64,000 bases of DNA from Candidatus Omnitrophota bacterium (GTDB taxonomy: Bacteria; Omnitrophota; Gorgyraeia; Gygaellales; Profunditerraquicolaceae). A program made the translations under genes and the position numbers. Every line of letters begins with the position of its first letter. Position 1 is the stretch's first letter. Below are positions 1 through 19,931 of this stretch, in pieces. A model generated the notes under the pieces. It was not told where the DNA came from. It saw only the letters and a list, made by a program, of their open reading frames with translations, and made no database searches. The stretch is from contig JAKLGJ010000003.1 in the NCBI GenBank assembly GCA_022710715.1, forward strand, positions 190,527 to 254,526, read 5' to 3'.

Positions 1-1778
1 CACGCCCGCGCTGATATACCCGGCGCTTTCCACGATCAGATCCTGACAATACCAGGCCGACTGGGCGCTCTCGAGTATATTAAAATTCCTCAACTCGCCG
101 TTAACCTGCACGGCAGTATCCCCGGCCTTGACCGTGCCATAGTTGTGCACGGTGCCGCCAATCACCCGTGTGCCCTCGCCGCTCATCTCAAGCAGCGAGC
201 CGGGAGCGTTGGCAACCGCAGCGTTCAACGCGCCGCCTCTGTAATAGAAGCGGTCGTAATTGTTAATCGTCCCCGCATTCAGCGTGCCGCCGCTCAAATC
301 GTACAAACCGCTGCTGGTTCCGTCGGGCGTTGCGGAAACCCATACGTTGCCGTTGACATTGACCTCGCCGCCGCTCTGGCGGAACTCGCCCCGGCCGCGG
401 TTGCCTACGACCAGATCACTATTCTCCACATGCAGTTGCCCGGTGCCCGATAACGTATACAGACCGACGCTGTTATCCTGACGGGCAAGCCACAAAGGAT
501 AATCAGTCATGATCACCGTGCCGCCGCTTTGAATAACCTCGCCTGTCCCCGCCCATTCGCCCAAAGCCATACCGTCGGCGCGGAACTCCCCGTCAGCCAT
601 CTCGAAAATGCCGTGGCCGGTCGACCCCGCTCCCAGATACACACCGCTATTCTCGGCGTTAAACTCGCCGCCGTCCTGATAAAAATATCCTTCGCCGTTG
701 GAACCAATGAAAACTTCCGACCGGTCGTCATTCAAATTCGTCGCCAGATACCCGTCGTACAAATAATACTCGCCCCGCGAACCCGCATCGGCGCCCAGGA
801 CCAGATCGCCATCCAGAAGATTATATCCGCCATCCTGCACAAAAGTCCCGTTGCCCTGAAAGCCTATGATCTCATTTCCGCCTATATACTGCTGCTGGCC
901 GTCATCGTTCAATAGCGCCTCGCCGAACTCATCCACCAGAAGCGCGGTCCGGCTGTTGAGAGATCCGCCGTACTGATAATACGCGCCGTGACTGCCGGCC
1001 ACGTCGCCGATCACCAGATCCGAGAAACTGCCCTCGCGGACTTCCCATCTTTCCTCATCTTCATTATACACCGCATTATCGCCGATGATCTCATGCATTC
1101 CGTCATTCTGAGAGAAAAACGCGCCCGGCGACCAGGTCCCTGCCGAATCTTCGACTTCAAACCCGGTTGATGAACTGGCGATCACCTCATGGCCCACAGT
1201 CAGGAACGCGTCTTCGCTCCAGGAATCCAACTCGTACGAACCATTGCTGTTGGACGCGACACCCAGTACCAACCCTGTGATCACTTTATTCGTCCCGCCA
1301 TACTGATACACACTGCCTGTGCCCTCGCTGCCGACCACCATCTCCCTGCTCTCCAGCTCGCCTGCATTCAAAGAATACGTCCCGAACGAACCATTCAAAT
1401 CCCCCAGACGCAGCTGATTGCCCACTGCAACCCGGCCGCCGCTCTGATCCACAAAACAATCCGTATCAAACCCGAAATACGCGTTCTGATGAACCGTCAA
1501 GTCGGCATTCGATTTAATATCCAGCTCCATGCCGTAATCAATTAACAGAGAATTCACATTCTGATTGGAATCTATCGCAACATAGCCCCAGAACGGGGAA
1601 CCCAGAATGAAAGCTTCGTCATCAGTGAACGGCACGCCGTTCGGATCCCAGTTGTCGGGATTTTCCCAATTGCTATCAGACCCATCCCCGCCGTCCCAGT
1701 AATAAGTCGTCTGCGCGAAAGCTGTGCACGCTATCAAAACTCCCATCAGCACCAGAAAAACTGTCTTTGAAAAACGCA
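1..1778 (-). CDS. Secreted repeat protein, 5' complete and 3' truncated by the window edge. Signal peptide MRFSKTVFLVLMGVLIACTAFAQ, then repeated G-x-(Y/F)-x-Q-x-GG units typical of autotransporter-associated (PATR-like) beta-strand repeats.
   Basis: Hand translation of the minus strand. ATG at 1776-1778 is preceded by GGAG, and the frame stays open to position 1. Absent from the ORF track because no stop lies inside the window. Plus-strand ORFs 145-1545 are antisense shadows of this gene. Confidence 0.6.
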
Positions 1779-2065
1779 TAGAAAACTCCTTTTTTAGCGG
1801 GTAAACAGAATCCTACACTTAATTGTAAGCATATTCCGTGCCAAAGATTAAAAAAAGTTCATACTAATTCACGCCGTAACCACGAGCTGCTCAATGCGTT
1901 AAGAATGCGCCTTCCAAGACCTTCTATGGCTGGAAGCCCGGTCCGATTCCATTGTTGCCGGCCTTAAACACAAACAGAGCGCCCGACCCCACCCGGCGCT
2001 CTATCACTATGCAGCATCAACCCTTTAGCGCATGATTAATATCAACATAAAATCAGCCCAAGCTG

Positions 2066-2146
2066 AAAAAAGGGGACAGGTCCACCCAAAACCCTCCGTC
2101 GAGAAATTTAGACAGATGTGTCCCCTTCTAAATTTGCTGTGTCCCC
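2066..2146 (+). repeat. REP-like element copy A: GGGGACAGGTCCACCC-N30-GACAGATGTGTCCCC-N14-GCTGTGTCCCC.
   Basis: Near-identical to copies at 2838, 3493 and 5320. Lies 5 nt after the RAYT stop. Confidence 0.85.
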
Positions 2147-2155
2147 TTTTTAGTT

Positions 2156-2821
2156 CTAGGGAACCCCACACACCATCTGATCCAGAGGAAGCTGTTTAAT
2201 CTTTTCTTTCATCCGTTCCACGAAATCCTCACTCCCTAATATCGTCCGGCGCGAGAAAGATTTCTGATTCATCACCCTGGAATCAAGCACAAAATCGCTG
2301 TAAGTCCTTTGCCGAGCCGCCGGATCGCTGCCAAGCCGCTCATACAACGGATCCATGCTCACCAAAGGATCCTTCTTCCCGGCAGCGTACACATTATAAC
2401 TGCTGAATCCGTATTCCTCGGGATAGGAAACCAACTCTCCGCGCACAGGGTTCAATTCCACATACTTGCCGCACTGCACCAGATAATTCTCCGAATCGAC
2501 AATGATACTCTTATACCGCCCCTGCCACAAATGCCCGATTAAACCGTAGCGCTTGCGAAAATACTGCATATAGGACAGGTTCACCTTCTGCATAAAAAGC
2601 GCGACATTCGACTCCATCTGCGGCCAAAGCAGCAAATGCACATGATTATTCATCAGGCAATAGTGCAGGATCTTGATAAAATTATTCGCCCTATGCTCCA
2701 GCAGCAATTTGTAATAATGCCGCTTATCCTCCCAGCAATGAAAAACGAACTGCTTGCCATTGCCCCGGCACATCACATGCAACCCCGCTCCAACCACGAT
2801 GATCCTGCGAATCCTCGGCAT
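2156..2821 (-). CDS. REP-associated tyrosine transposase (RAYT; IS200-like Y1 HUH transposase).
   Basis: HUH motif NHVHLLLW; catalytic Tyr region GHLWQGRYKS...ELNPVRGELV like E. coli RayT/YafM. Start moved to the internal ATG (MPRIRR) preceded by GAGGAGGAGG, because the ORF-track N-terminus is read through REP copy B. Confidence 0.8.
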   Translation of the reverse strand: MPRIRRIIVVGAGLHVMCRGNGKQFVFHCWEDKRHYYKLLLEHRANNFIKILHYCLMNNHVHLLLWPQMESNVALFMQKVNLSYMQYFRKRYGLIGHLWQGRYKSIIVDSENYLVQCGKYVELNPVRGELVSYPEEYGFSSYNVYAAGKKDPLVSMDPLYERLGSDPAARQRTYSDFVLDSRVMNQKSFSRRTILGSEDFVERMKEKIKQLPLDQMVCGVP

Positions 2822-2837
2822 CTGCTCCTCCTCCTCA

Positions 2838-2916
2838 CATAAGGGGACAGGTCCACCCAAAACGGCTCGTCGAGAATTTTGGACAGATGTGTCCCCTTCT
2901 AAATTTGCTGTGTCCC
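2838..2916 (+). repeat. REP-like element copy B, same orientation as copy A, between the RAYT start and the ORF6N-1 stop.
   Basis: Direct sequence identity to copy A over about 80 bp. Confidence 0.85.
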
Positions 2917-2932
2917 CTTTTCGAGGACGAGA

Positions 2933-3475
2933 TTAATCAGTCTTGAATCCAATCTGCGGCTTCGAAACCGGTGCCGACGATTTGGTGACAGGCTGCGCCG
3001 GCGCAAGCAATAATTGCTTGATAGCTTCGAAAATCGCATTGATCCGCTCATCGTGCTTATCCACTCGCCGCCCCAACGCTTCAAGCTTTTCCGCCAATTC
3101 CCGGTGAGTCAACAAGAGCTCGCGCAACTTCACAAACGCCCTCATAATAGCAATATTTACCTGAACAGCCCGCTCTGACCTCAAAACGCTTGAAAGCATC
3201 GCCACACCCTGTTCGGTAAAAACATACGGCAAGTGTCGCCTGCCGCCCCAACTTGACATCGCAAATTGCGATTTCAAATTTATTGCTTCTTCCTGGGTCA
3301 TCTGAAACATAAAATCATCCGGGAATCTATTACGATTCCTTTTAACCTGCTCATTCAACCGCATCGTTGCAACACCATACAACTGCGCCAGGTCCCGATC
3401 GATCAAAACCCGCTTACCCCGTACCACTAAAATTCTTGCTGCCACGGCTTCCACAGAAAATTTCCCTTCGTTCAT
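2933..3475 (-). CDS. ORF6N-domain (KilA-N-like, phage antirepressor-type DNA-binding) protein, paralog 1.
   Basis: MNEGKFSVEAVAARILVVRGKRVLIDRDLAQLYGV...RFPDDFMFQ...[46 protein letters not shown] plus a C-terminal coiled coil. Start trimmed to ATG 3475 because the first 27 aa of the track ORF translate REP copy C. Confidence 0.7.
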   Translation of the reverse strand: MNEGKFSVEAVAARILVVRGKRVLIDRDLAQLYGVATMRLNEQVKRNRNRFPDDFMFQMTQEEAINLKSQFAMSSWGGRRHLPYVFTEQGVAMLSSVLRSERAVQVNIAIMRAFVKLRELLLTHRELAEKLEALGRRVDKHDERINAIFEAIKQLLLAPAQPVTKSSAPVSKPQIGFKTD

Positions 3476-3492
3476 AGGCACACCTCCCTGGG

Positions 3493-3570
3493 CAAGGGGA
3501 CAGGTCCACCCTTTTGCGCTCGTCGATATTTTCGGACAGATGTGTCCCCTTTTCAATTTACTGTGTCCCC
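3493..3570 (+). repeat. REP-like element copy C.
   Basis: GGGGACAGGTCCACCC...GACAGATGTGTCCCC...CTGTGTCCCC. Confidence 0.85.
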
Positions 3571-3663
3571 TTTTACCCTAATAGACGCCATCGCCGCTCA
3601 AATCTAACAAAAATATTTTTAACCCAACACACTTTCAATAACCGCACACAACCACTCCCCCCT

Positions 3664-3744
3664 AAAAAAGGGGACACAGCATTTTCGAAAGGGGACACAT
3701 CTCCCCCTTTTTCTCGACGAGGGCTAAGGGGTGGACCTGTCCCC
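3664..3744 (-). repeat. REP-like element copy D, inverted relative to copy C with about 93 bp between them (REPIN-like inverted pair).
   Basis: GGGGACACAGC...GGGGACACATCT...GGGTGGACCTGTCCCC. Confidence 0.8.
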
Positions 3745-3751
3745 TTTTCCG

Positions 3752-3760
3752 TGGTATAAT
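3752..3760 (+). promoter_or_regulatory. Extended -10 promoter TGgTATAAT located 6 nt upstream of the xrtA ATG; predicts a leaderless transcript.
   Basis: TGGTATAAT at 3752-3760, ATG at 3767, no Shine-Dalgarno. Confidence 0.45.
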
Positions 3761-3766
3761 TACTGC

Positions 3767-4639
3767 ATGTTCAATTATCTGATCTGGGGATTAGTCGCCG
3801 CGCTTTATTCGCCGATCATCTACCAGCTTTACCGCAACCGCTGGGAAATGATCGACTACACCCACGCCTACTTCATCCTGCCGGTCTCTCTGTGGCTGAT
3901 CTGGCGCAAGCGCAAAGAACTGCGCCAAGCCGCCCGCGCAACCGCCGCAAGCCGCGCCGCCGCCCACGCCCGCACCCCCAAAAAGGCCGCGCGCTCCGCA
4001 TCCTGGGGTCTGGCAGCCCTCATCCTGGGCGTCCTGTTCTTCATCTTCGGCTGGCGCTGGGATTATCTGTTCATCTCCACCTTCTCGCTCATCCTCACCG
4101 GCTCCGGCCTGGTGCTTTATCTCTACGGCTCCAAAACCGCCAAACTGCTCAAGTTCCCCATTCTCTATCTTTTGCTCATGGTTCCGCCGCCTCTGGGCAT
4201 CCTGGACTCCATCACCCTGCCCATGCGTTACGGCATCTCCGCGGTCGCCGAATTCATCCTGCGCTCATTCCACGTGCCGGTAGTCCGCGACGGCCTGCTG
4301 CTCAACGTCGGCGGACAGGAAATATTCATGGGCCAGCCCTGCTCGGGATTCCGCTCCCTGATCACCCTGATCTCCCTGGGCCTGGCGTACGTGTACATCT
4401 GCAAATCCACGCGACGCACCAAAGCCATACTCCTGGCCTCGATCGTACCCCTGGCTTTAACCGGCAACCTTATCCGCGTGCTTTCGCTGTGCCTGGTCAC
4501 CTACCACTTCGGCCCGGAGATCGGCCAGGGCTTCTTCCACGATTTCAGCGGCATCCTCATGTTCATCGTGACCATTTCCGGCCTCATCGGTCTGGAAGCC
4601 TATTTAAACCGCCCGCGGGTCACGGAGGAGGAACGCTAG
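3767..4639 (+). CDS. xrtA: Exosortase (EpsH/XrtA family), polytopic membrane transpeptidase.
   Basis: WEMIDYTHAYFILPVSLWLIWRKR N-terminal motif; CSG active-site region PCSGFRSLITLISLGLAYVY; 8 predicted TM helices; followed directly by EpsI. Start set to ATG 3767 rather than GTG 3731, which lies in REP copy D. Confidence 0.75.
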   Translation: MFNYLIWGLVAALYSPIIYQLYRNRWEMIDYTHAYFILPVSLWLIWRKRKELRQAARATAASRAAAHARTPKKAARSASWGLAALILGVLFFIFGWRWDYLFISTFSLILTGSGLVLYLYGSKTAKLLKFPILYLLLMVPPPLGILDSITLPMRYGISAVAEFILRSFHVPVVRDGLLLNVGGQEIFMGQPCSGFRSLITLISLGLAYVYICKSTRRTKAILLASIVPLALTGNLIRVLSLCLVTYHFGPEIGQGFFHDFSGILMFIVTISGLIGLEAYLNRPRVTEEER

Positions 4640-5320
4640 ATGAAAAAAGCCGCCCCTGCCCGCGCCGCCGCCCCCGCCGCGCCCTTCAACCCCAGATACC
4701 TTATCGCCGCCATCCTCATCTGCGCGGCTATCGCAATCAGCTTCGCCATACCTAAACCCAAATACCAAAGCCTCAACGTCCTTAAACAGATCTCCATCCC
4801 GGTAAACTTCGGAGACTGGAAGGGCAACGACATCGGTCAGCAGCTCGACCTCAACGACGACCGCTACCGCTTCATCTCGGACATCTTCGCGCGCACCTAC
4901 ACCCGCGCAGACGGCGCGCAGCTCATGTTGCTGATCCTCGACGCAGGCAACTTCCACAATCCCAAAGTCTGCTTCGGCTCTTCCGGCTACAAAATCCGCG
5001 AGCTTCCCGACACCCGGATCAACGCCGGCAAACGCTCTTTTGAAACCACCACCCTGCTGATGACCAAAGATCCGGAATCCACCATGCTCATCTACTGGCT
5101 GTGCATCGATAAGAAAATAACTTCCTGGGCCGGCCAAAAAACCAAAGAACTCTGGTTCTCGCTCTTCAACAAAAAGAAAGCCGGACTCATGGTCCGGCTC
5201 GACGTTCCTGCTCATCCTCAAGCGCCCGAAGCCTCCGCGGCTTTAGCGCAGCAATTCGTTACTGAACTATCAACTCACCTTTCTGAAAAGGACCTGACTC
5301 TCATATTCGGCGCCCAGTAA
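4640..5320 (+). CDS. epsI: EpsI-family exosortase-associated protein.
   Basis: Unfused partner directly after the exosortase (stop/start overlap TAGATG); single N-terminal TM helix then a soluble domain, the EpsI architecture. Confidence 0.6.
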   Translation: MKKAAPARAAAPAAPFNPRYLIAAILICAAIAISFAIPKPKYQSLNVLKQISIPVNFGDWKGNDIGQQLDLNDDRYRFISDIFARTYTRADGAQLMLLILDAGNFHNPKVCFGSSGYKIRELPDTRINAGKRSFETTTLLMTKDPESTMLIYWLCIDKKITSWAGQKTKELWFSLFNKKKAGLMVRLDVPAHPQAPEASAALAQQFVTELSTHLSEKDLTLIFGAQ

Positions 5321-5396
5321 AGGGGACAGGTCCACCCAAAACCCTCCGTCGACAAAAACAGCCAGATGTGTCCCCTTTCAAATTTGCTATGTCCCC
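5320..5396 (+). repeat. REP-like element copy E, abutting the epsI stop codon.
   Basis: Identity to copies A-C. Confidence 0.85.
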
Positions 5397-5425
5397 TTTT
5401 CCTTTTCCAACTCACTCAACTCAAC

Positions 5426-5941
5426 TCAATTCACATCAAACCTCGGTTTGGGCGGCTCATCCGGAGGCGGCTCAATGAGTTTTTTGATCGTTGTGAAGAT
5501 CACCTGAATATCAGTTTCATGCATTTGATACTTCCGCTCTAATTCTTCAATTTTCTCCGATAACTCTTTGTGCGTTAACAACAGTTCTCGCAGCTTCACA
5601 AATGCCCGCATAATTGCTATATTTACCTGGACTGCACGTTCTGAACGCAGCACACTCGATAACATCGCCACACCTTCTTGAGTAAACACATACGGCAGGT
5701 ATCTGTGCCCACCCCAACTTGAGGTCACAAATTGTGACCTCAAGTCTACAACCTCTTCTCGGCTAAGTTGAAACATAAAATCTTCAGGAAACCTCTTAAG
5801 ATTCCTTCTAACGCCTTGAAGCAAAGCTTTCGTCTTCACACCATACAGCTCCGCCAAATCCCTATCCAGCATCACCTTCTTCCCTCGAATCAACAGAATC
5901 TTTGCAGCCACAACCTCCACCGAAATTTTCTCTTTTTTCAT
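5426..5941 (-). CDS. ORF6N-domain protein, paralog 2.
   Basis: [35 protein letters not shown]...[58 protein letters not shown] before ATG 5941. Confidence 0.7.
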
Positions 5942-6132
5942 CGCTCTCCCTCCCTTCATCACTAATAGACGCAGAGAGAAGCGAAATCTAACACAAATCT
6001 CCAGCAACTTATCTCCACCCACCTATAAAAACAAGTAGGACATGGGGACACGAACGAAAAGGAACCAGGTGCCGCGAGGTAACCCCAACAAGAAAAGCGC
6101 ATATTTCTATGCGCTTCCTTCGCCTCCTGATT

Positions 6133-6148
6133 CAAAAGGGGACACAGC
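6133..6148 (-). repeat. Truncated REP-like remnant (a single GGGGACACAGC arm) just 3' of the lipoprotein gene. A second GGGGACAC lies at 6044-6051.
   Basis: Matches the first arm of copies D, G and H only. Confidence 0.4.
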
Positions 6149-6158
6149 TTTTTTCCGC

Positions 6159-6350
6159 CTAATTGTCCAGATACTTGAACTTGCTGACTTTGCTCTGCAG
6201 GTTCGGCTGATGAATCTCTTCTTCGATCACCGTCTTGACGATCTTGCCTTCCGCATCCTTCTCCACCGTGACTTTCTTGTGATAGCCGGTTAACGTCGTG
6301 CACCCGGATAATAAAACCGCAACCAACACCACAACGATAGCCCTTAACAC
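6159..6350 (-). CDS. Small lipoprotein with lipobox LLSGC.
   Basis: Signal peptide plus lipobox; overlaps the GT26 gene by 7 nt (operonic). Confidence 0.45.
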   Translation of the reverse strand: MLRAIVVVLVAVLLSGCTTLTGYHKKVTVEKDAEGKIVKTVIEEEIHQPNLQSKVSKFKYLDN

Positions 6351-7855
6351 TTGAGCACCCCCTTTCGCATTTTATACCGCAACACCATCCCAAACAACTT
6401 CGCCCCATCAATGAAATACCGTTTAAACATCCTGCGCGGCTCCATGAACACGCGCCATAACCACTCCAGATGAATAGCAATCATTATTTTAGGCGCCCGC
6501 CGCACATATCCGGACAGAAAATCAAGATACGCTCCCACGCCCATGCATAACCTCGGCTTTAATGCCGCTCGATGCTTATGAATCCACTTCTCCTGTAAAG
6601 GAGCACCCATGCCTACCAGCAGAATATCCGCCCCGGAATTATTGACCTGTTCCACCACATCGTCATCATTCGCAAAAAATCCGTTGCACACTCCCGCAAC
6701 CTTTAATCCCGGGAACCGATTAGTTGCCATTTCAGCGGCCTTCCGAGCAACCCCCTCCTTGCCCCCCAATAAAAACACCGCCAATCCCCTGTTTGCGGCA
6801 ACACGCAAAACAGCAGGAGAAAACTCCGTCCCGTTGCAATTATCCAGCATCCTGATCCCCAGTAAAGAAGAAACCACCCCCAATCCGATCCCATCGGGCA
6901 ACACCAAATCTTTCCCGTTCAGAATGCCCCGATATGCTTCATCTTTCTGCGCTTTATATAAACAATCCGCATTGAGGAAGAAAATCGTTCTTTTGGCAGA
7001 CGACTTGTTCTCGCCATTCCCAAGTATATCTTCAGCAATGTTTACGGCTTCTTTAAAATAAAGGTTATCGTAAGACACATTAAGCACTAAAGCTCGATCT
7101 CGCTGTTGCACTCCCACAGAGTGCCTTTTCCCCATAAAGTAACTCTTGATCAACAATCCCAACAAAAACAGGCCGCTTTTCGCATATCTTCCCAGCATCA
7201 GTTGAGGATCCTGTGCAATCCTCCAGGTCCATTCCAGATTCAATTTCCGCAGCAACACCGGCGCCCGCTTCAGCCTACCGCCGGGATAATCCATCCATCC
7301 CCCGACGCCCAAACAAAGCCGGGGATTCAACTGATCTCGATGCTTATTGATCCACTTCTCCTGTAAAGGCGCGCCCATGCCCACAATCAGGATATCCGCA
7401 CCCGACCGATTAATCTCTTCGATAACAGCCGCATCATCGCTAAAATATCCGGGATGCGCACCAACGATCTTTAATCCGGGATAAGCCTTAACCAGATTGT
7501 CGCCGGCTTTCTTCACTATTTCTTCCTTGCTCCCCAATAAAAACACCTTATTTCCGCCGAAAGCCGCAGTGACTAAAACCACCGGCGTCAAATCAGACCC
7601 ATTGCAATTTCCACGCGATTCAGTTCCCAACGACGCGCTCAAAAGCCGCAGATAAACACCATCCGGCAAAACCAGTTCAGCCGAATTCAGGATCTTAGCA
7701 TATTCCTCATCGTGCAACGCTTTGTACAGATAATCCGCATTGAGAAAAAACACCGACTTCTTGCTTTTTCCCTGCAAATAATCCTTAACCGTATTCACGG
7801 CTTCCTGGAAAGTCAGATTATTGTAGTTGATCCCAAAAACGTCGGTTTTGTGCAT
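6344..7855 (-). CDS. Tandem-duplicated WecB/TagA/CpsF-family (GT26) glycosyltransferase, two complete domains in one polypeptide.
   Basis: Two about 245-aa halves that each carry FFLNAD..LY, VLPDG, LLG.KEE, GADIL.VGMGAPLQEKWI.KHR..L.PRLC.GVG and LEW.WR motifs. Confidence 0.75.
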   Translation of the reverse strand: MHKTDVFGINYNNLTFQEAVNTVKDYLQGKSKKSVFFLNADYLYKALHDEEYAKILNSAELVLPDGVYLRLLSASLGTESRGNCNGSDLTPVVLVTAAFGGNKVFLLGSKEEIVKKAGDNLVKAYPGLKIVGAHPGYFSDDAAVIEEINRSGADILIVGMGAPLQEKWINKHRDQLNPRLCLGVGGWMDYPGGRLKRAPVLLRKLNLEWTWRIAQDPQLMLGRYAKSGLFLLGLLIKSYFMGKRHSVGVQQRDRALVLNVSYDNLYFKEAVNIAEDILGNGENKSSAKRTIFFLNADCLYKAQKDEAYRGILNGKDLVLPDGIGLGVVSSLLGIRMLDNCNGTEFSPAVLRVAANRGLAVFLLGGKEGVARKAAEMATNRFPGLKVAGVCNGFFANDDDVVEQVNNSGADILLVGMGAPLQEKWIHKHRAALKPRLCMGVGAYLDFLSGYVRRAPKIMIAIHLEWLWRVFMEPRRMFKRYFIDGAKLFGMVLRYKMRKGVLKC

Positions 7856-7858
7856 AGC

Positions 7859-8623
7859 TTAAATTGAGTCGAATATACTCCAGCAATCCAAAGCTCCGTT
7901 AACGATCTTCTTAAAACTCTCCAATGAATCATCACGCTCTATCTTAGTGCGTTTCAAATCAAACAACTCGCAGCCCGGATAATTTATTCCATTGATCGCG
8001 CTGAATGCGCATTTATATCCTGCTTCCTGCACGATTTGCCGGGACAGTTGGTTGTAATGCCTTCGCAAACCATACGGATAAGCAAAGAATTCGATAGATT
8101 CGGATAAAACAGCTTCCAGATCAGCCTTGCAACCGACAATCTCTTCTTTCATCTGCTCCAATGGCGCCCTAGACAGCAAACAATGCGTGCGGGTATGGCC
8201 GCCGAACTCAATCCCGGCCGCACGCATCTCTTTTACCTGGTCTTTGGTCACAATTCCCTTATCTGCGGTAGTCAAAAAAACACATCCTGGCACATTGTTC
8301 TTCTTTAACAAGGGAAAAGCATTATAGTAAATACACTCGCGCCCGTCATCCATGCTCACCGCAATTACCGTGTTTTTCAATTCCTTCTGCCCGGTCAAAA
8401 ACTCATACGCCTGGCGCAAAGAAACAATCTCGAAATTATCTTTCAGATACTTCAGCTGATCTTCGAACATGCCCGTAGAAACGCTATATATGTTCGAAGC
8501 AACGTCCTCCACGTCATGATACATCAACACGCGCACGCCCGGCTGTGTCAGCCTACTCTTGTCAATTTTGCCCCAAGCAGCGCACCTGCGCCTTAACCAA
8601 ACCTTGGCTTTTGTTTTTAACAT
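7859..8623 (-). CDS. Polysaccharide deacetylase (CE4 / NodB-like).
   Basis: SMDDG...HTRTHCLL motifs. Confidence 0.6.
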   Translation of the reverse strand: MLKTKAKVWLRRRCAAWGKIDKSRLTQPGVRVLMYHDVEDVASNIYSVSTGMFEDQLKYLKDNFEIVSLRQAYEFLTGQKELKNTVIAVSMDDGRECIYYNAFPLLKKNNVPGCVFLTTADKGIVTKDQVKEMRAAGIEFGGHTRTHCLLSRAPLEQMKEEIVGCKADLEAVLSESIEFFAYPYGLRRHYNQLSRQIVQEAGYKCAFSAINGINYPGCELFDLKRTKIERDDSLESFKKIVNGALDCWSIFDSI

Positions 8624-8637
8624 ATTACCCGCGAATG

Positions 8638-8646
8638 TGATATAAT
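8638..8646 (+). promoter_or_regulatory. Extended -10 TGaTATAAT. Would place the TSS at or near the second ATG (8654), i.e. a leaderless mRNA for the secreted hydrolase.
   Basis: TGATATAAT at 8638-8646 overlapping the first ATG (8645). Confidence 0.35.
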
Positions 8647-10933
8647 GATTCCCATGAAGAAATTCATCTTCCTATTATTAATCATTATACCCCTATTCTG
8701 CCCCTCCATACAAGCCCAAACCCAAGAAAATGAAGATGGTGAGTGGTATCCCTTCTATTTTCCGGAGAAACTCGATCCCGACTCTCCCATGAACATCGGT
8801 AAGCTGGTTTTAGACGCCCCTGCCGGAAAACACGGTTTCTGCAAAGTCAAAGACGGCCATTTCTATTTTGAGGACGGAACAAGAGCGAAATTCTGGGGCA
8901 CTAATCTTTGTTTCAACGCCTGTTTTCCCACCAAGGAACAAGCAGAAATGTTGGCCACCCGCATTGCCTACTTCGGCTTTAATGCTGTCCGTCTGCATCA
9001 TATGGATTTCTATTTCGAGCCCAAAGGAATCTTTGAAGACGTTTGCCCGGCCTACAAAGACCCGCAGATGAAAAGAACTGGAGTTTTGAGCAAAAAACAA
9101 CTCGACAAGCTGGATTACCTGATTTACCAATTAAAAATTAGAGGCATCTACATAGATATGAATTTGCTTGTGGCTCGTCATTTCACGGAAGCGGACGGAG
9201 TCAAATTTGCAAAAGAACTGGGTATGGCGGCAAAACCGGTTTCCATGTTTGATCCCAAACTTATTGAACTGCAGAAACAGTACGCTAAAGACCTACTCAC
9301 GCATTATAACCCTTACACAAAACTACGTTACTGCGACGATCCGGTAATCGCACTTATTGAAATTACCAATGAGAACTCAATTATTGGGTCCTGGCAAGGG
9401 AATAATCTAAACGGAACCCTCTTGGGTCTAAAAACCAAGGGGATTCCCGATTATTACTCCCAGCAGCTTGATATCAGCTGGAACAAATGGTTGGAGAAAA
9501 AATACTTAACAACTGAGCATACTATTGCCGCCTGGGAGGATACGTCCACCCATCCCGCCCAACTACAAATGATTTTTCTGCCTTCACTGGATCAATGGAA
9601 AACGGAACAACACAGTACAGCTAAACTATCTAAATCTGTAACTTCAGAAGGTGTAACAATTAAGGTAAAAACTATCACAAATACCCCTTGGCATCTTCAG
9701 TTTAAATCACACATTGATATTACTAAAGATAAAAACTACATATTAAACTTTACCGGATACAGTTCTAAACCAACAACCGCCGGTTTGATTTGCCAACAAA
9801 CATCTCCGCCATGGGATAATGTAGGATTGGCTGAAAGTATTATTTTCACCACAACCCCACAGGATTTTGCCATACCCTTCACAGCAACTCAGAGCTCAAC
9901 AAAAGCAAAACTGGCTTTTCTCATCGGCTACGACACTTCGACAATCTATTTATCCAATATCACTCTGACAAGTGCAAACAATTTGCCATTGAAATCGGAA
10001 TGCGAACCTACCGATCACTTTAACTTTCCAAGACCTCTCTACAAATTGCGATTTTTTCATAATAAAAAAATCATCAAAGACATTGCTTCTTTCTATGCTG
10101 ATCTAACAAAAGAGTACATCGACCAAATGTTATCCACACTACGGACTGACATAGGTATTAAAGTGCCAATCACAGGCATCGGGGGCAACATTCATGAAGA
10201 AAACATTCCCGCAATGCAAAACTGCGACTTCACTGATCATCACACATATTGGGACCATCCCAAGTTTCCACACAAACCTTGGGACAGGAATGACTTTGTT
10301 ATCGAAAACAAATCAATGCTTCAAAATCCTTCATTGGGCATGATAGGTTCTATAGATAAATACCACTTCGATAAAACTAAACCATATACCATAACTGAGT
10401 GGAACCATTGCTATCCCAACAAATTTGCTTACGAATCCCCTATCCTGATAGCACTCCACGCAAAACAAAAAGAATGCGACGCATTATTTCAATTCGCATT
10501 CAGTCACGGCTGGGAAATAAACTTCAGACTAGATACCATTCAAAGCTATTTCGATATTCTTTCCAATGCGCAACAATTACTACTTTGCGGTATGGGCAGC
10601 TTCATCCACCTATCACAAGATACAGCAGACCACTCACTTAATAATGGCATCTTGCGGTTCAAATCATCCGGCATCGAGGGATACTGCGGGTCTATTGCCA
10701 ACACCCCGCTGTACTTAAATGCCCAACCAATAATTTCACGGGACAACGGCGCGATTATTATTTTAACTAACAGTCAACAGTCAACCGATGCTTTATTCTC
10801 AGTCGGCGAGATTAAAAATTCGAACAGCGGCTGGCGCAATAATAAATTCATCTGGGGGGCAAGACCAACACTAATGAAACGCATCAAAACAAAGCAAACA
10901 GCGGAAAATTCAGCAAAGACACAACTACCTTGA
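8645..10933 (+). CDS. Secreted glycoside hydrolase, GH5-like TIM barrel plus C-terminal beta-rich domains.
   Basis: Signal peptide MKKFIFLLLIIIPLFCPSIQA; RLHHMD and IEITNENS (NE catalytic-acid-type motif). Sole plus-strand gene of the glycan island. Start may be 8654. Confidence 0.5.
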   Translation: MIPMKKFIFLLLIIIPLFCPSIQAQTQENEDGEWYPFYFPEKLDPDSPMNIGKLVLDAPAGKHGFCKVKDGHFYFEDGTRAKFWGTNLCFNACFPTKEQAEMLATRIAYFGFNAVRLHHMDFYFEPKGIFEDVCPAYKDPQMKRTGVLSKKQLDKLDYLIYQLKIRGIYIDMNLLVARHFTEADGVKFAKELGMAAKPVSMFDPKLIELQKQYAKDLLTHYNPYTKLRYCDDPVIALIEITNENSIIGSWQGNNLNGTLLGLKTKGIPDYYSQQLDISWNKWLEKKYLTTEHTIAAWEDTSTHPAQLQMIFLPSLDQWKTEQHSTAKLSKSVTSEGVTIKVKTITNTPWHLQFKSHIDITKDKNYILNFTGYSSKPTTAGLICQQTSPPWDNVGLAESIIFTTTPQDFAIPFTATQSSTKAKLAFLIGYDTSTIYLSNITLTSANNLPLKSECEPTDHFNFPRPLYKLRFFHNKKIIKDIASFYADLTKEYIDQMLSTLRTDIGIKVPITGIGGNIHEENIPAMQNCDFTDHHTYWDHPKFPHKPWDRNDFVIENKSMLQNPSLGMIGSIDKYHFDKTKPYTITEWNHCYPNKFAYESPILIALHAKQKECDALFQFAFSHGWEINFRLDTIQSYFDILSNAQQLLLCGMGSFIHLSQDTADHSLNNGILRFKSSGIEGYCGSIANTPLYLNAQPIISRDNGAIIILTNSQQSTDALFSVGEIKNSNSGWRNNKFIWGARPTLMKRIKTKQTAENSAKTQLP

Positions 10934-17850: not shown

Positions 17851-18336
17851 TTACTTTATTTCCTCAAACAACTCCCCATTATCATACTCCGCCGGAAGCA
17901 CCAGATGCGCTGGCTTGCCGAACAGGCAGTCGCCTTCCTTATAAAACCCTTCGGCGATGAGCTCGGAGCAGACAAACCGCCGCTTGCTGCTGAAGAGCCG
18001 GTGCAGCCCCTCCCCTATGCGCGTAAACAATAGCGACAGCGGGAACCAGAAGAACTGCAAAGTATCGTAAGGCAGGTTGTTCATGGTCGCCCACCAGAGC
18101 GCGACTTTGTAGCGCTGGCGCTCGGACTGGCCGCGGCGGCGCAGGTGCTTGATCTGTATGCCCTTATCCAGGTAGGACTGCTTTAGATTGACCAGGCGGG
18201 AGCGCGGGATGCCGGCTTCGATGCAGGTATAACCGCCTAAACAGCCCAGCACGTGAGTCCATTTGCTGCTGTCGCCATAGCCGGCCTGAACCTGCGTTTT
18301 CTCGATAAGCTGATTGTGTCCGGCGACCAGGATCAC
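17851..18336 (-). CDS. YiiX / peptidase C92 family (permuted papain-fold) protein; N-terminus appears disrupted.
   Basis: GDVILVAGHN...SSKWTHVLG and FVCSELIAEGF match YiiX GDLVF...SPWSHVG and YCSEFV. Only a GTG lying inside the conserved GDV motif is available as start. GC higher than the neighbouring island. Confidence 0.4.
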   Translation of the reverse strand: MILVAGHNQLIEKTQVQAGYGDSSKWTHVLGCLGGYTCIEAGIPRSRLVNLKQSYLDKGIQIKHLRRRGQSERQRYKVALWWATMNNLPYDTLQFFWFPLSLLFTRIGEGLHRLFSSKRRFVCSELIAEGFYKEGDCLFGKPAHLVLPAEYDNGELFEEIK

Positions 18337-19276: not shown

Positions 19277-19434
19277 ACGCGCGTCCTTTTTTGTGCGAGC
19301 ATCCTCTTCAGTGTCGATTTAGGCAAAGCTGCGTTGAATCTGCGCATTTCTTCCAGCCAGGCGAGCTTTTGGGCGGCAGGCACGCGCAGCCAGCGTTTCA
19401 TCTTCTCTTCTTCGGATTCCCAGCCGTAACTCAT
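19274..19434 (-). CDS. Small 53-aa ORF (MSYGWESEEEKMKRWLRVPAAQKLAWLEEMRRFNAALPKSTLKRMLAQKRTRV), translationally coupled on both sides.
   Basis: Not in the ORF track (under 60 aa). TAATG overlap with the upstream NTase stop and ATGA overlap with the rfbA start. Confidence 0.35.
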
Positions 19435-19931
19435 TATTTCTTCCCTTTCATGATTCTCTTGAGCTTCTTCAGTTGCAAGATGTCGAATGTATCTATCTGC
19501 CGGGCAGAAGCTCTTTTCATAGCGATAAGATCATCTATCCCCATCACCGGAAGCGCTAAGCCGGACACTTTTACCCGCCGGGCGCGCTTGAGCGCTTCGG
19601 CAAAAGGAACCGGCGAATCCACAATAATATCTATCTCTTTCAATTCGCCTGGTTGGTAGTAATTGATCGCCTTGAGATTCTTCTGTTTGATTAACGCGGC
19701 CAATGCCGCCGGATCCAGCGCTTTTATGTCGATCGGCTGCTTCAAGCGGTATCCCAGAGAACGTAAGATGCGGTCAGCTTCCCGCAGAGTCTGCGGATCG
19801 ATACCGATCAAAAGATCCAGATCAGCGGTTGCCCTGGACACACCCAACAAATTGAGCGCGATGCCGCCCACGATCACATAATCGAATTTCTCGCGCTGGA
19901 ATGCTTTGAAAACATCCTCATAAATGATCAT
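19434..19931 (-). CDS. Pol-beta-superfamily nucleotidyltransferase-fold protein.
   Basis: VIVGGIALNLLGVSRATADLDLLI matches hG[GS]-x9-13-DhD. Confidence 0.5.
   Translation of the reverse strand: MIIYEDVFKAFQREKFDYVIVGGIALNLLGVSRATADLDLLIGIDPQTLREADRILRSLGYRLKQPIDIKALDPAALAALIKQKNLKAINYYQPGELKEIDIIVDSPVPFAEALKRARRVKVSGLALPVMGIDDLIAMKRASARQIDTFDILQLKKLKRIMKGKK

Follow-up and report, generated by a model that had tools for sequence, protein, structure and literature searches.

We analysed a 64,000-nt stretch of DNA from a Candidatus Omnitrophota bacterium (contig JAKLGJ010000003.1 of assembly GCA_022710715.1, positions 190,527–254,526; hereafter the window), near whose left end an exosortase gene (xrt; 3767–4639, plus strand) and the gene of its partner EpsI (DUF3485; 4640–5320, plus strand) lie between two genes for ORF6N-domain proteins, ORF6N-1 (2933–3475, minus strand; 180 aa, a length also given in the source record) and ORF6N-2 (5426–5941, minus strand; 171 aa). 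The gaps around these genes are occupied by repeats of the repetitive extragenic palindrome (REP) type and by a gene for a Y1 (HUH-type) tyrosine transposase (2156–2821, minus strand) that resembles REP-associated tyrosine transposases (RAYTs). The locus is a mosaic of parts of known kinds (exosortase/EpsI, ORF6N proteins of the PADLOC PDC-S05 type, and a RAYT with REPs), not a new exosortase accessory system, and two features of the ORF6N cassettes, a conserved block upstream of each gene and a palindrome inside it, are undescribed.

The ORF6N-1 and ORF6N-2 proteins matched the Pfam ORF6N family (PF10543) with 118.2 and 117.3 bits, respectively (cut-off 27.8), and both matched PDC-S05 over their full length (E 3e-57 and 8e-59, respectively; three profiles were matched, with E 1e-57 to 1e-59 over nearly all of the 177 positions, in a library that carries no curated cut-off). 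The two proteins are 66% identical over 156 aa, slightly above the ~60% estimated in the initial annotation, which had correctly described two genes of the same direction enclosing the exosortase-EpsI pair but had taken them for the products of a local duplication. Comparison with other genomes revealed a closer relative for each: the closest relatives listed for ORF6N-1 are 72–75% identical and come from other metagenomes (75% for P0002), ORF6N-2 is 83% identical to the gene in locus L002, and in an alignment of 38 sequences many homologs are nearer to ORF6N-2 than ORF6N-1 is (63%). The two genes are therefore not local duplicates, and their sequences suggest that they are single-gene cassettes acquired separately.

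The ORF6N family is large and mobile, with links to defence islands; a sequence search gave at least 8000 matches, and homologs of about 50% identity are carried on plasmids of Bacteroides, Legionella and Sulfuricurvum. Both proteins of the window also matched PHROG anti-repressor families (E 1e-27) and, weakly, Phage_pRha. An AlphaFold (AF2) model of ORF6N-2 (pLDDT 76.6) exhibited an alpha/beta domain of about 100 residues followed by a single long helix (residues 101–156); a fold search found only a weak likeness of the N-terminal domain to the Dachshund/Ski DNA-binding fold (Foldseek probability 0.9, E 0.2), and a sequence search of the PDB with ORF6N-2 gave no match. As modelled, the product of about 170 aa joins an N-terminal DNA-binding ORF6N domain to a long helix that probably dimerises. 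The ORF6N domain, the PHROG and Phage_pRha matches and the Dachshund/Ski likeness are shared with phage anti-repressors of the KilA-N/Bro-N/Rha type; unlike these, the ORF6N genes of the window stand alone in the chromosome outside prophages, and homologs are rare in sequenced phages (five metagenomic phage records). A defence role may be proposed from the family label and from one tested member of PDC-S05, described as a RhuM-domain protein, which is reported to make T7 and T5 plate about 1000-fold less well on E. coli (bioRxiv 10.1101/2024.09.26.614923). The likeness to PDC-S05 lies in the full-length profile matches and in neighbourhoods rich in Abi, toxin-antitoxin and restriction-modification genes; the difference is that the phage-tested member, as described there, carries a Virulence_RhuM domain, whereas the proteins of the window form a 170-aa subfamily. 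The accessible part of that report does not mention an upstream motif or an internal palindrome for PDC-S05.

On the coding strand, each ORF6N gene is preceded by a block of the form GTTAGATTT-N12-CGTCTATT (3578–3609 for ORF6N-1 and 5962–5993 for ORF6N-2). A position matrix built from 17 instances of the block (threshold 14) matched only these two sites in the window (43.6 and 45.8, respectively), compared with 0.05 matches in shuffled windows, and the conservation of the block before both genes, as first noticed, thus holds. The motif of ORF6N-2 is intact (5942–5995, minus strand; covariance model 34 bits, E=4e-4) and comprises GTTAGATTT, a 12-nt spacer, a CGTCTATT loop and a 3′ arm bearing the Shine-Dalgarno (SD) sequence; that of ORF6N-1 consists of the 5′ part, namely GTTAGATTT, spacer and CGTCTATT (3569–3611, minus strand; covariance model 22.3 bits). 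The block is not a peculiarity of this locus. It was found before all 16 ORF6N genes or remnants that were fetched, five held-out loci included, and also before BrnT-like toxin genes (L047, L128), a DOC/RhuM-like fragment (L031), genes for 23S_rRNA_IVP four-helix-bundle proteins directly upstream of xrt (L003, L009), and an orthologous gene for a CBM96 PEP-CTERM protein divergent from xrt (L003, L004, L009, L047). An exact-pattern scan of IMG/VR revealed the block on 18 viral contigs (L135–L152; for example, L137 4181–4234 and L143 3538–3591), in nearly all of which it precedes a conserved gene for 46–58 aa (..RHRKLIEETKRIIRWRLFLDECGL..) in an integrase/regulatory region. ORF6N homologs on plasmids of other phyla lack the block. 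The block is a family- and phylum-wide cis element, not a locus-specific one.

The 12-nt spacer varies among instances, yet it is complementary to a GGAGG-containing stretch just downstream, with pairings such as UUGCCACC/GGUGGCAA, CCUCCUU/AAGGAGG and CUUGUGGUUUUCUA/UAGAAGGUUACAAG (four G·U pairs); the ORF6N-2 hairpin, CGCUUCUCUCU/GGGAGGGAGAGCG, has a folding energy of −17 kcal/mol. An alignment-free test of 36 instances gave a mean of −13.5 kcal/mol for the sense hairpin versus −7.6 kcal/mol for the antisense (Wilcoxon p=3.5e-7), and 86 of the 434 hairpin pairs (20%) in these instances were G·U. Shuffling of the spacer only yielded a mean z of −1.95, with p≤0.05 in 19 of the 36. In a covariance-model alignment of 38 matches, which is fitted to the model and leans towards structure, 84.6% of cells were paired, compared with 73.5% after shuffling, and none of 500 shuffles reached any observed value; double-sided changes were present in 12 of 13 pairs versus 7.3 in the shuffles, and covariation was 0.37 versus 0.22, with 0.07–0.135 in slid controls. 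The variable 3′ arms are out of register in a MAFFT alignment of the motif, on which RNAalifold recovered the flank-loop pairing only. A search of Rfam 15 with window positions 1–10,000 and six loci with strong instances gave no match at E≤1.

Several known kinds of element were compared with the block and rejected. GTTAGAT fits the GTTRRRY core of integron attC sites; no inverse core (RYYYAAC) lies upstream, and here the loop is invariant and the stem variable. Only the viral spacers resemble the sigma-54 pattern TGGCAC-N5-TTGC, whereas the ORF6N spacers do not. A general housekeeping promoter was set aside because no further site of ≥14 bits is present in the window.

A near-perfect palindrome with the consensus YTTGARGTnnCAA-N-TTGnnACYTCAAR lies at codons ~64–76 of all the ORF6N genes examined. 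In ORF6N-2 it is perfect, with arms of 13–14 bp (5717–5745; minimum free energy −21.7 kcal/mol; z = −4.4 compared with synonymous recoding), and ORF6N-1 has a weaker copy with three mismatches to the pattern (3253–3277; hairpin −12.5 kcal/mol). The segment is the least conserved part of the protein and has the lowest model confidence, and the arms, which differ among genes, are kept complementary through compensatory substitutions that change amino acids. Of all 42-nt windows of the coding sequence, none folds more stably than the palindrome in 8 of the 12 Omnitrophota genes (z −3.2 to −9.4 versus synonymous recoding) or in the Bacteroides, Legionella and Sulfuricurvum genes, and the palindrome is conserved in four phyla; its sense and antisense folding energies are about equal. 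Sites were located in L002 (5961–5991), L124 (6194–6228, 4579–4607), L125 (949–975, 1006–1032, 1297–1331, 1623–1649), L128 (5915–5941, 6194–6228, 7351–7377), L130 (7196–7226), L131 (7195–7221), L133 (7197–7231) and the ORF6N genes of L153–L155. Copies occur outside intact genes too (L125, L128, L124), and one survives in a decayed gene (L012). The palindrome could be an operator of the dimeric ORF6N product, or a recombination site that drives exchange of cassettes.

The REP family, recognised by alignment, is represented in the window by seven full copies, of which five lie within 2063–5400: A (2063–2150, plus; DNA fold z = −3.6), B (2834–2921, plus), C (3487–3574, plus), D (3661–3748, minus and thus inverted, its end 19 nt short of the exosortase ATG) and E (5313–5400, plus). 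One partial copy, found through inverted repeats and alignment, retains only the final 15 nt (6134–6148, minus), and one more copy lies just left of the window (L001 5417–5499). The 18-mer AAGGGGACAGGTCCACCC gave eight matches at ≤3 mismatches, seven of which are REP copies, versus 0.06 expected by chance. The repeats are about 80–88 nt long, with three GGGGACA/TGTCCCC blocks and hairpin z-scores of −0.4 to −3.6; the eight full copies of the window and L001 share 75–95% identity, and seven of them are intergenic, with copy E starting 8 nt before the EpsI stop codon. They are short, extragenic, present in multiple copies and hairpin-forming, as REP elements are. The Y1 transposase gene (Pfam Y1_Tnp 48.5 bits, cut-off 23) is single copy within the window and is flanked by REPs A and B in direct orientation, 6 and 13 nt from the gene ends. 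Structured extragenic repeats that flank and cluster around a Y1 HUH-type transposase gene are a feature shared with REP/RAYT (REPIN-RAYT) systems; the differences are that the protein of the window falls below the NCBIfam RAYT cut-off (REP_Tyr_transpos, NF047646; 48.6 versus 80 bits), that the repeat is long (~80 nt), and that the flanking copies are direct instead of inverted.

REP C interrupts the upstream region of ORF6N-1. The distance from CGTCTATT to the ATG is 104 nt in ORF6N-1 versus 22 nt in ORF6N-2, and the gap from block to ATG in relatives, measured from a scanning window 6 nt longer, is 15–21 nt (34 nt in one). Since the minus-strand junction reads ..CGTCTATTAGGGT|AAAAGGGGACA.., with the REP directly after ..CGTCTATTAGGGT, REP C sits in the loop of the ORF6N-1 hairpin. 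The covariance match of ORF6N-1 correspondingly covers the 5′ part only (43 nt versus 48–56 nt in other matches), with the 3′ arm displaced by REP C; excision of REP C in silico did not restore the canonical hairpin. The insertion between block and start codon that the initial annotation described is therefore real, although no local duplication preceded it. The two ORF6N starts lie 191 and 193 nt from a minus-orientation REP upstream. The sequences in between cannot be aligned, and we therefore regard the match as coincidental. A scan of JGI metagenomes with a REP 17-mer returned 42 loci, nearly all of them chance matches, and real copies on one related contig of 805 kb, which has five REP copies and no ORF6N gene nearby.

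Related structures were observed at other loci. Another Omnitrophota genome has a RAYT-like gene (L058 2987–3739; 37% identical) with 26-nt inverted GGGACAG repeats, 0.7 kb upstream of xrt and in the same relative position, between a gene for a large secreted protein and the exosortase gene. Palindromes of the form GGGGAC(A/G)...G/TGTCCCC with A and T tracts occur beside the motif in L012 (8400–8480), L013 (745–820), L003 (7905–7950) and L128 (5850–5882); they look like bidirectional terminators and like the arms of the REP in the window.

The exosortase passed the generic family models (TIGR02602, 156 bits versus 105.6; Pfam PF09721, EpsH, 202.7 bits, E=8.8e-60), and C192, R196 and H258 are invariant among 20 exosortase homologs. 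The label XrtA given earlier has to be withdrawn, as the protein scored 138.1 bits with TIGR03109, below the cut-off of 208; the XrtV (191 versus 313) and XrtB (186 versus 275) cut-offs were also missed, and no named subtype model of NCBIfam was passed. EpsI is supported by TIGR02914 (70 bits versus 42.8) and PF11984 (84 bits), and its start codon directly follows the exosortase stop. A profile built from the 20 homologs retrieved 80 loci in GTDB genomes of Omnitrophota, Brocadiales, Nitrospirota and others; this type of exosortase is common to the three named groups, and EpsI directly follows the exosortase in about 74 of the 80 loci, across three phyla. The neighbouring gene for a 761-aa secreted protein (L001 5728–8013), whose 5′ part of 593 codons occupies 1–1779 of the window on the minus strand and whose C-terminus is encoded just left of it, encodes 55 C-terminal residues that match TIGR02595 (PEP_CTERM; 18.7 bits, cut-off 16). 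Because of this sorting signal, the 761-aa protein is a likely substrate of the exosortase. The Cys/Arg/His columns, the adjoining EpsI and the neighbouring PEP-CTERM protein, as well as an exopolysaccharide (EPS) locus with priming transferase, export, chain-length/tyrosine-kinase and EpsL-like proteins, correspond to the PEP-CTERM/exosortase (EpsH) system (Haft et al. 2006, PMC1569441), from which the locus differs in that no subtype model is reached and that ORF6N, the RAYT gene and the REPs lie outside the system.

The xrt-epsI pair is a resident, vertically kept part of the EPS/PEP-CTERM locus. Its GC content (0.59–0.61) is like that of the bulk of the window (0.52–0.59), whereas the values of the ORF6N genes (0.44–0.51) and the RAYT gene (0.48–0.49) are lower. 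In L072 and L073 a convergent WecG gene directly follows EpsI and no ORF6N gene is present, and homologs of the 762-aa secreted protein encoded at 8645–10,933, which matched no Pfam or NCBIfam family, occur near the exosortase pair in L005, L006, L013, L031 and L066 (44–89% identity). The 762-aa protein is a steadier neighbour of xrt-epsI than ORF6N is, and several other Omnitrophota loci retain one or the other of these neighbours without ORF6N. As the WecG order of L072 and L073 and the 762-aa neighbours recur elsewhere, ORF6N-2 and the elements around it were inserted into a conserved arrangement.

Immediately upstream of the exosortase gene, a sigma-70-like site, TGGACC-17-TATAAT (with TG), is present at 3732–3760, with its −35 inside REP D and its −10 ending 6 nt before the ATG. 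No Shine-Dalgarno sequence precedes this ATG, and an alternative GTG start (3731) lies inside REP D. Given the spacing of the −10, the missing SD and the −35 in REP D, the exosortase transcript may be leaderless and its promoter partly supplied by the REP.

Analysis of the 80 exosortase loci revealed an ORF6N gene within 10 kb in four only: L002, L012 (decayed), L013 (two copies) and L031 (a weak, RhuM/DOC-like match). It was absent from the other 76, most Omnitrophota loci included, in agreement with the earlier statement that ORF6N is not a regular exosortase component. Adjacency is nonetheless not unique to the window, since ORF6N genes lie within about 2.5 kb of the pair in L012, L013 (both copies) and L133. 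In the 80 loci, no more than 2.5 kb separates the pair from four of five ORF6N matches and from 12 of 13 block instances, and this zone makes up only about one-third of the flanking DNA; a binomial estimate for the enrichment of the motif is ~1.5e-5, or ~2e-3 when orthologous instances are counted once. The flanks of exosortase pairs are therefore a preferred site of motif-bearing accessory genes in this phylum. As the explanation of this adjacency we prefer an insertion hot spot where the conserved part of the EPS locus meets the variable part; a shared regulon that includes PEP-CTERM genes could also account for it.

The surroundings of seven ORF6N homologs, sampled solely for lying on long contigs, were examined. 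Four of them (L124, the P0005 place, L128 and L132) are inside sugar-nucleotide/polysaccharide clusters that also hold Fic, AbiEii, AbiGi, MNT-type nucleotidyltransferase, DUF1016 and BrnT/CopG genes. The homolog of L130 lies among AbiGi and zeta-toxin genes, that of L131 adjoins a type I HsdR gene, and that of L133 stands between lexA and dinB, 1.5 kb upstream of another exosortase-EpsI pair.

Taken together, we propose, with a probability of roughly 60%, a resident xrt-epsI pair whose intergenic gaps were colonised by a RAYT with its REPs and by two ORF6N cassettes, the latter expressed from promoters with built-in SD insulation. Each cassette would be self-contained, consisting of the gene, the fixed expression module GTTAGATTT-N12-CGTCTATT and the internal palindrome. 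The two conserved boxes would act as the −35 and −10 elements of a promoter belonging to the cassette, perhaps of an extracytoplasmic function (ECF)-like type with a "CGTC" −10; TGTTAG-N16-CGTCTA resembles ECF-type promoters. The variable spacer between the boxes would serve as an anti-Shine-Dalgarno: on read-through transcripts initiated outside the cassette, it would pair with the ribosome-binding site and mask the SD, and translation would proceed only from transcripts started at the cassette's own promoter. In ORF6N-1, REP C has put 88 nt between the signal and the ribosome-binding site, which probably altered how the gene is controlled. The fixed spacing of the boxes argues for a promoter, as do the SD starting just 4–8 nt after CGTCTATT, the presence upstream of an A/T-rich tract only, with no other conserved box, and the many instances that abut a terminator-like hairpin.

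Fold-back structures insulate IS10 and IS50 against read-through transcription. Anti-SD insulation encoded in promoters is also described for CT-rich insulators of sigma-54 promoters (bioRxiv 10.1101/086108). As in these cases, a pyrimidine-rich upstream stretch pairs with the SD and external transcripts would be poorly translated; unlike them, here two invariant boxes enclose the 5′ arm, the loop does not vary, and the element is common to unrelated genes and viral contigs.

Several observations weigh against the account that we propose. The true SD lies outside the hairpin at the PEP-CTERM and 23S_rRNA_IVP instances, which insulation leaves unexplained; the defence role draws on a hidden Markov model family label and a tested protein from another subfamily; and the closeness of motif-bearing genes to exosortase pairs (12 of 13 instances), together with the many ORF6N relatives in polysaccharide clusters, could mean a functional link beyond an insertion hot spot. 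The motif could also be a transcribed regulator of the 5′ untranslated region, in which the hairpin sequesters the SD, the loop forms a pseudoknot with the 5′ end, and a trans-acting factor controls a regulon of defence, toxin, phage and PEP-CTERM genes. The covariation and strand asymmetry of the hairpin, its retention where the real SD is not covered and the missing Rfam match are compatible with such a riboregulator; furthermore, in 34–36 of 36 instances the 5′ flank UAGAU can base-pair with the loop GUCUA, the two one-sided changes being kept as G·U, and the ORF6N-1 motif is immediately preceded by a sigma-70-like site, TTGAAA-17-TATTTT. However, no −35 is conserved further upstream, where only the A/T-rich tract is found, and in several instances a terminator-like hairpin adjoins the motif directly on its upstream side, so that a separate promoter would not fit. 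The two invariant boxes are a constant, promoter-like distance apart, none of the pseudoknot pairs covaries on both sides, and bridging a stem of 11–13 bp with a linker of 2 nt would be questionable on steric grounds; we consider a riboregulator doubtful. The two possibilities differ in where transcripts would begin: 5′ ends 5–9 nt after CGTCTATT are expected for the promoter, and at the G of GUUAGAUUU for the riboregulator. More broadly, GTTAGATTT-N12-CGTCTATT may be an undescribed structured regulatory element of Omnitrophota and their viruses, whether riboregulator or insulated promoter, with a regulon of defence, toxin, phage-early and PEP-CTERM genes around the exosortase locus, and the ORF6N palindrome in at least four phyla an operator or recombination site; this we hold tentatively, as possible rather than probable.

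That the ORF6N proteins are dedicated regulators of the exosortase/EPS locus, binding the block or the internal palindrome, as the initial annotation had suggested with its cassette-specific regulators, appears unlikely. Their recurrence beside exosortase pairs (L013, L012, L133 and L002), the polysaccharide clusters around four of the seven sampled relatives and the presence of the same motif before the CBM96 PEP-CTERM gene at four loci would suit such a role, but it is difficult to reconcile with the 76 exosortase loci that lack ORF6N, with the relatives beside HsdR, AbiGi and zeta-toxin genes or between lexA and dinB, and with a family that is carried on plasmids of unrelated phyla and classed as a candidate defence gene; GC content, moreover, marks both copies as foreign. 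Mobilisation by REP/RAYT, either of the whole xrt-epsI unit, as had also been proposed, or of ORF6N cassettes bracketed by inverted REPs (B(+)...D(−) and E(+)...partial(−)), is highly improbable. Five full REPs and a RAYT-like gene do lie within 3.3 kb, each ORF6N gene has a plus REP 11–25 nt after its stop and a minus REP or remnant upstream of its block, and the RAYT-like gene of L058 is likewise close to xrt. Yet the GC content of xrt-epsI (0.60) is native and its neighbours are kept elsewhere in Omnitrophota without ORF6N, and the ORF6N copies are 66% identical, compared with 75–95% for the REPs, which indicates that the units did not arise by joint copying. Elsewhere, ORF6N relatives lack flanking copies of the REP of the window, the REPs of the 805-kb contig have no ORF6N beside them, and clustering of REPs beside a RAYT gene is the usual pattern of REP/RAYT systems.

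To the right of ORF6N-2, a gene for a 63-aa lipoprotein (6159–6350, minus strand) overlaps the end of a gene for a double WecG/TagA/CpsF glycosyltransferase (6344–7855, minus strand), with which the low-GC variable part of the EPS locus begins. The glycosyltransferase is a tandem fusion of 503 aa with two complete domains and two matched stretches. The lipoprotein gene has a paralog just left of the window (L001 5525–5728; 86% identical over 49 aa); each paralog overlaps the stop of its upstream gene (the WecG gene and the 761-aa PEP-CTERM protein gene, respectively), and the left one is followed by the REP copy of L001, which is 95% identical to REP E. The remainder of the EPS locus reaches ~25.4 kb and encodes a deacetylase, glycosyltransferases, Wzy, a pyruvyl transferase and RmlA, as well as the chain-length/tyrosine-kinase protein, the export protein, the priming transferase and the EpsL-like protein; its conserved genes for export and priming come after the low-GC variable glycan cluster. 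Its glycan-specific part (Wzy, GT2s, pyruvyl transferase, deacetylase and WecG) has a GC content of 0.35–0.44 at 8–18 kb and 0.48 at 6–8 kb, versus 0.52–0.59 elsewhere, and has the appearance of a serotype-like island exchanged by horizontal transfer. Between rmlA and the chain-length determinant gene, an AbiEii/DUF2204-like nucleotidyltransferase gene (19,434–19,931), near which lies an unannotated gene for 161 aa (17,851–18,336), is another lodger of the defence/toxin-antitoxin type in the polysaccharide locus.

For annotation, these results mean that the exosortase pair should not be named XrtA and that ORF6N should not be added to the exosortase system. They point to EPS/exosortase loci of this phylum as gathering points of defence and toxin genes, which fits a co-evolution of surface-polymer loci and phage defence. 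The expression module and the palindrome conserved by compensatory changes offer handles on how the PDC-S05 family works. Since Omnitrophota are essentially uncultured, an expression signal that can be recognised in the sequence is an aid to interpreting their genomes and to assigning viruses to hosts; a compact cis element that is conserved across the phylum and its viruses and absent from Rfam could mark the hosts of Omnitrophota viruses.

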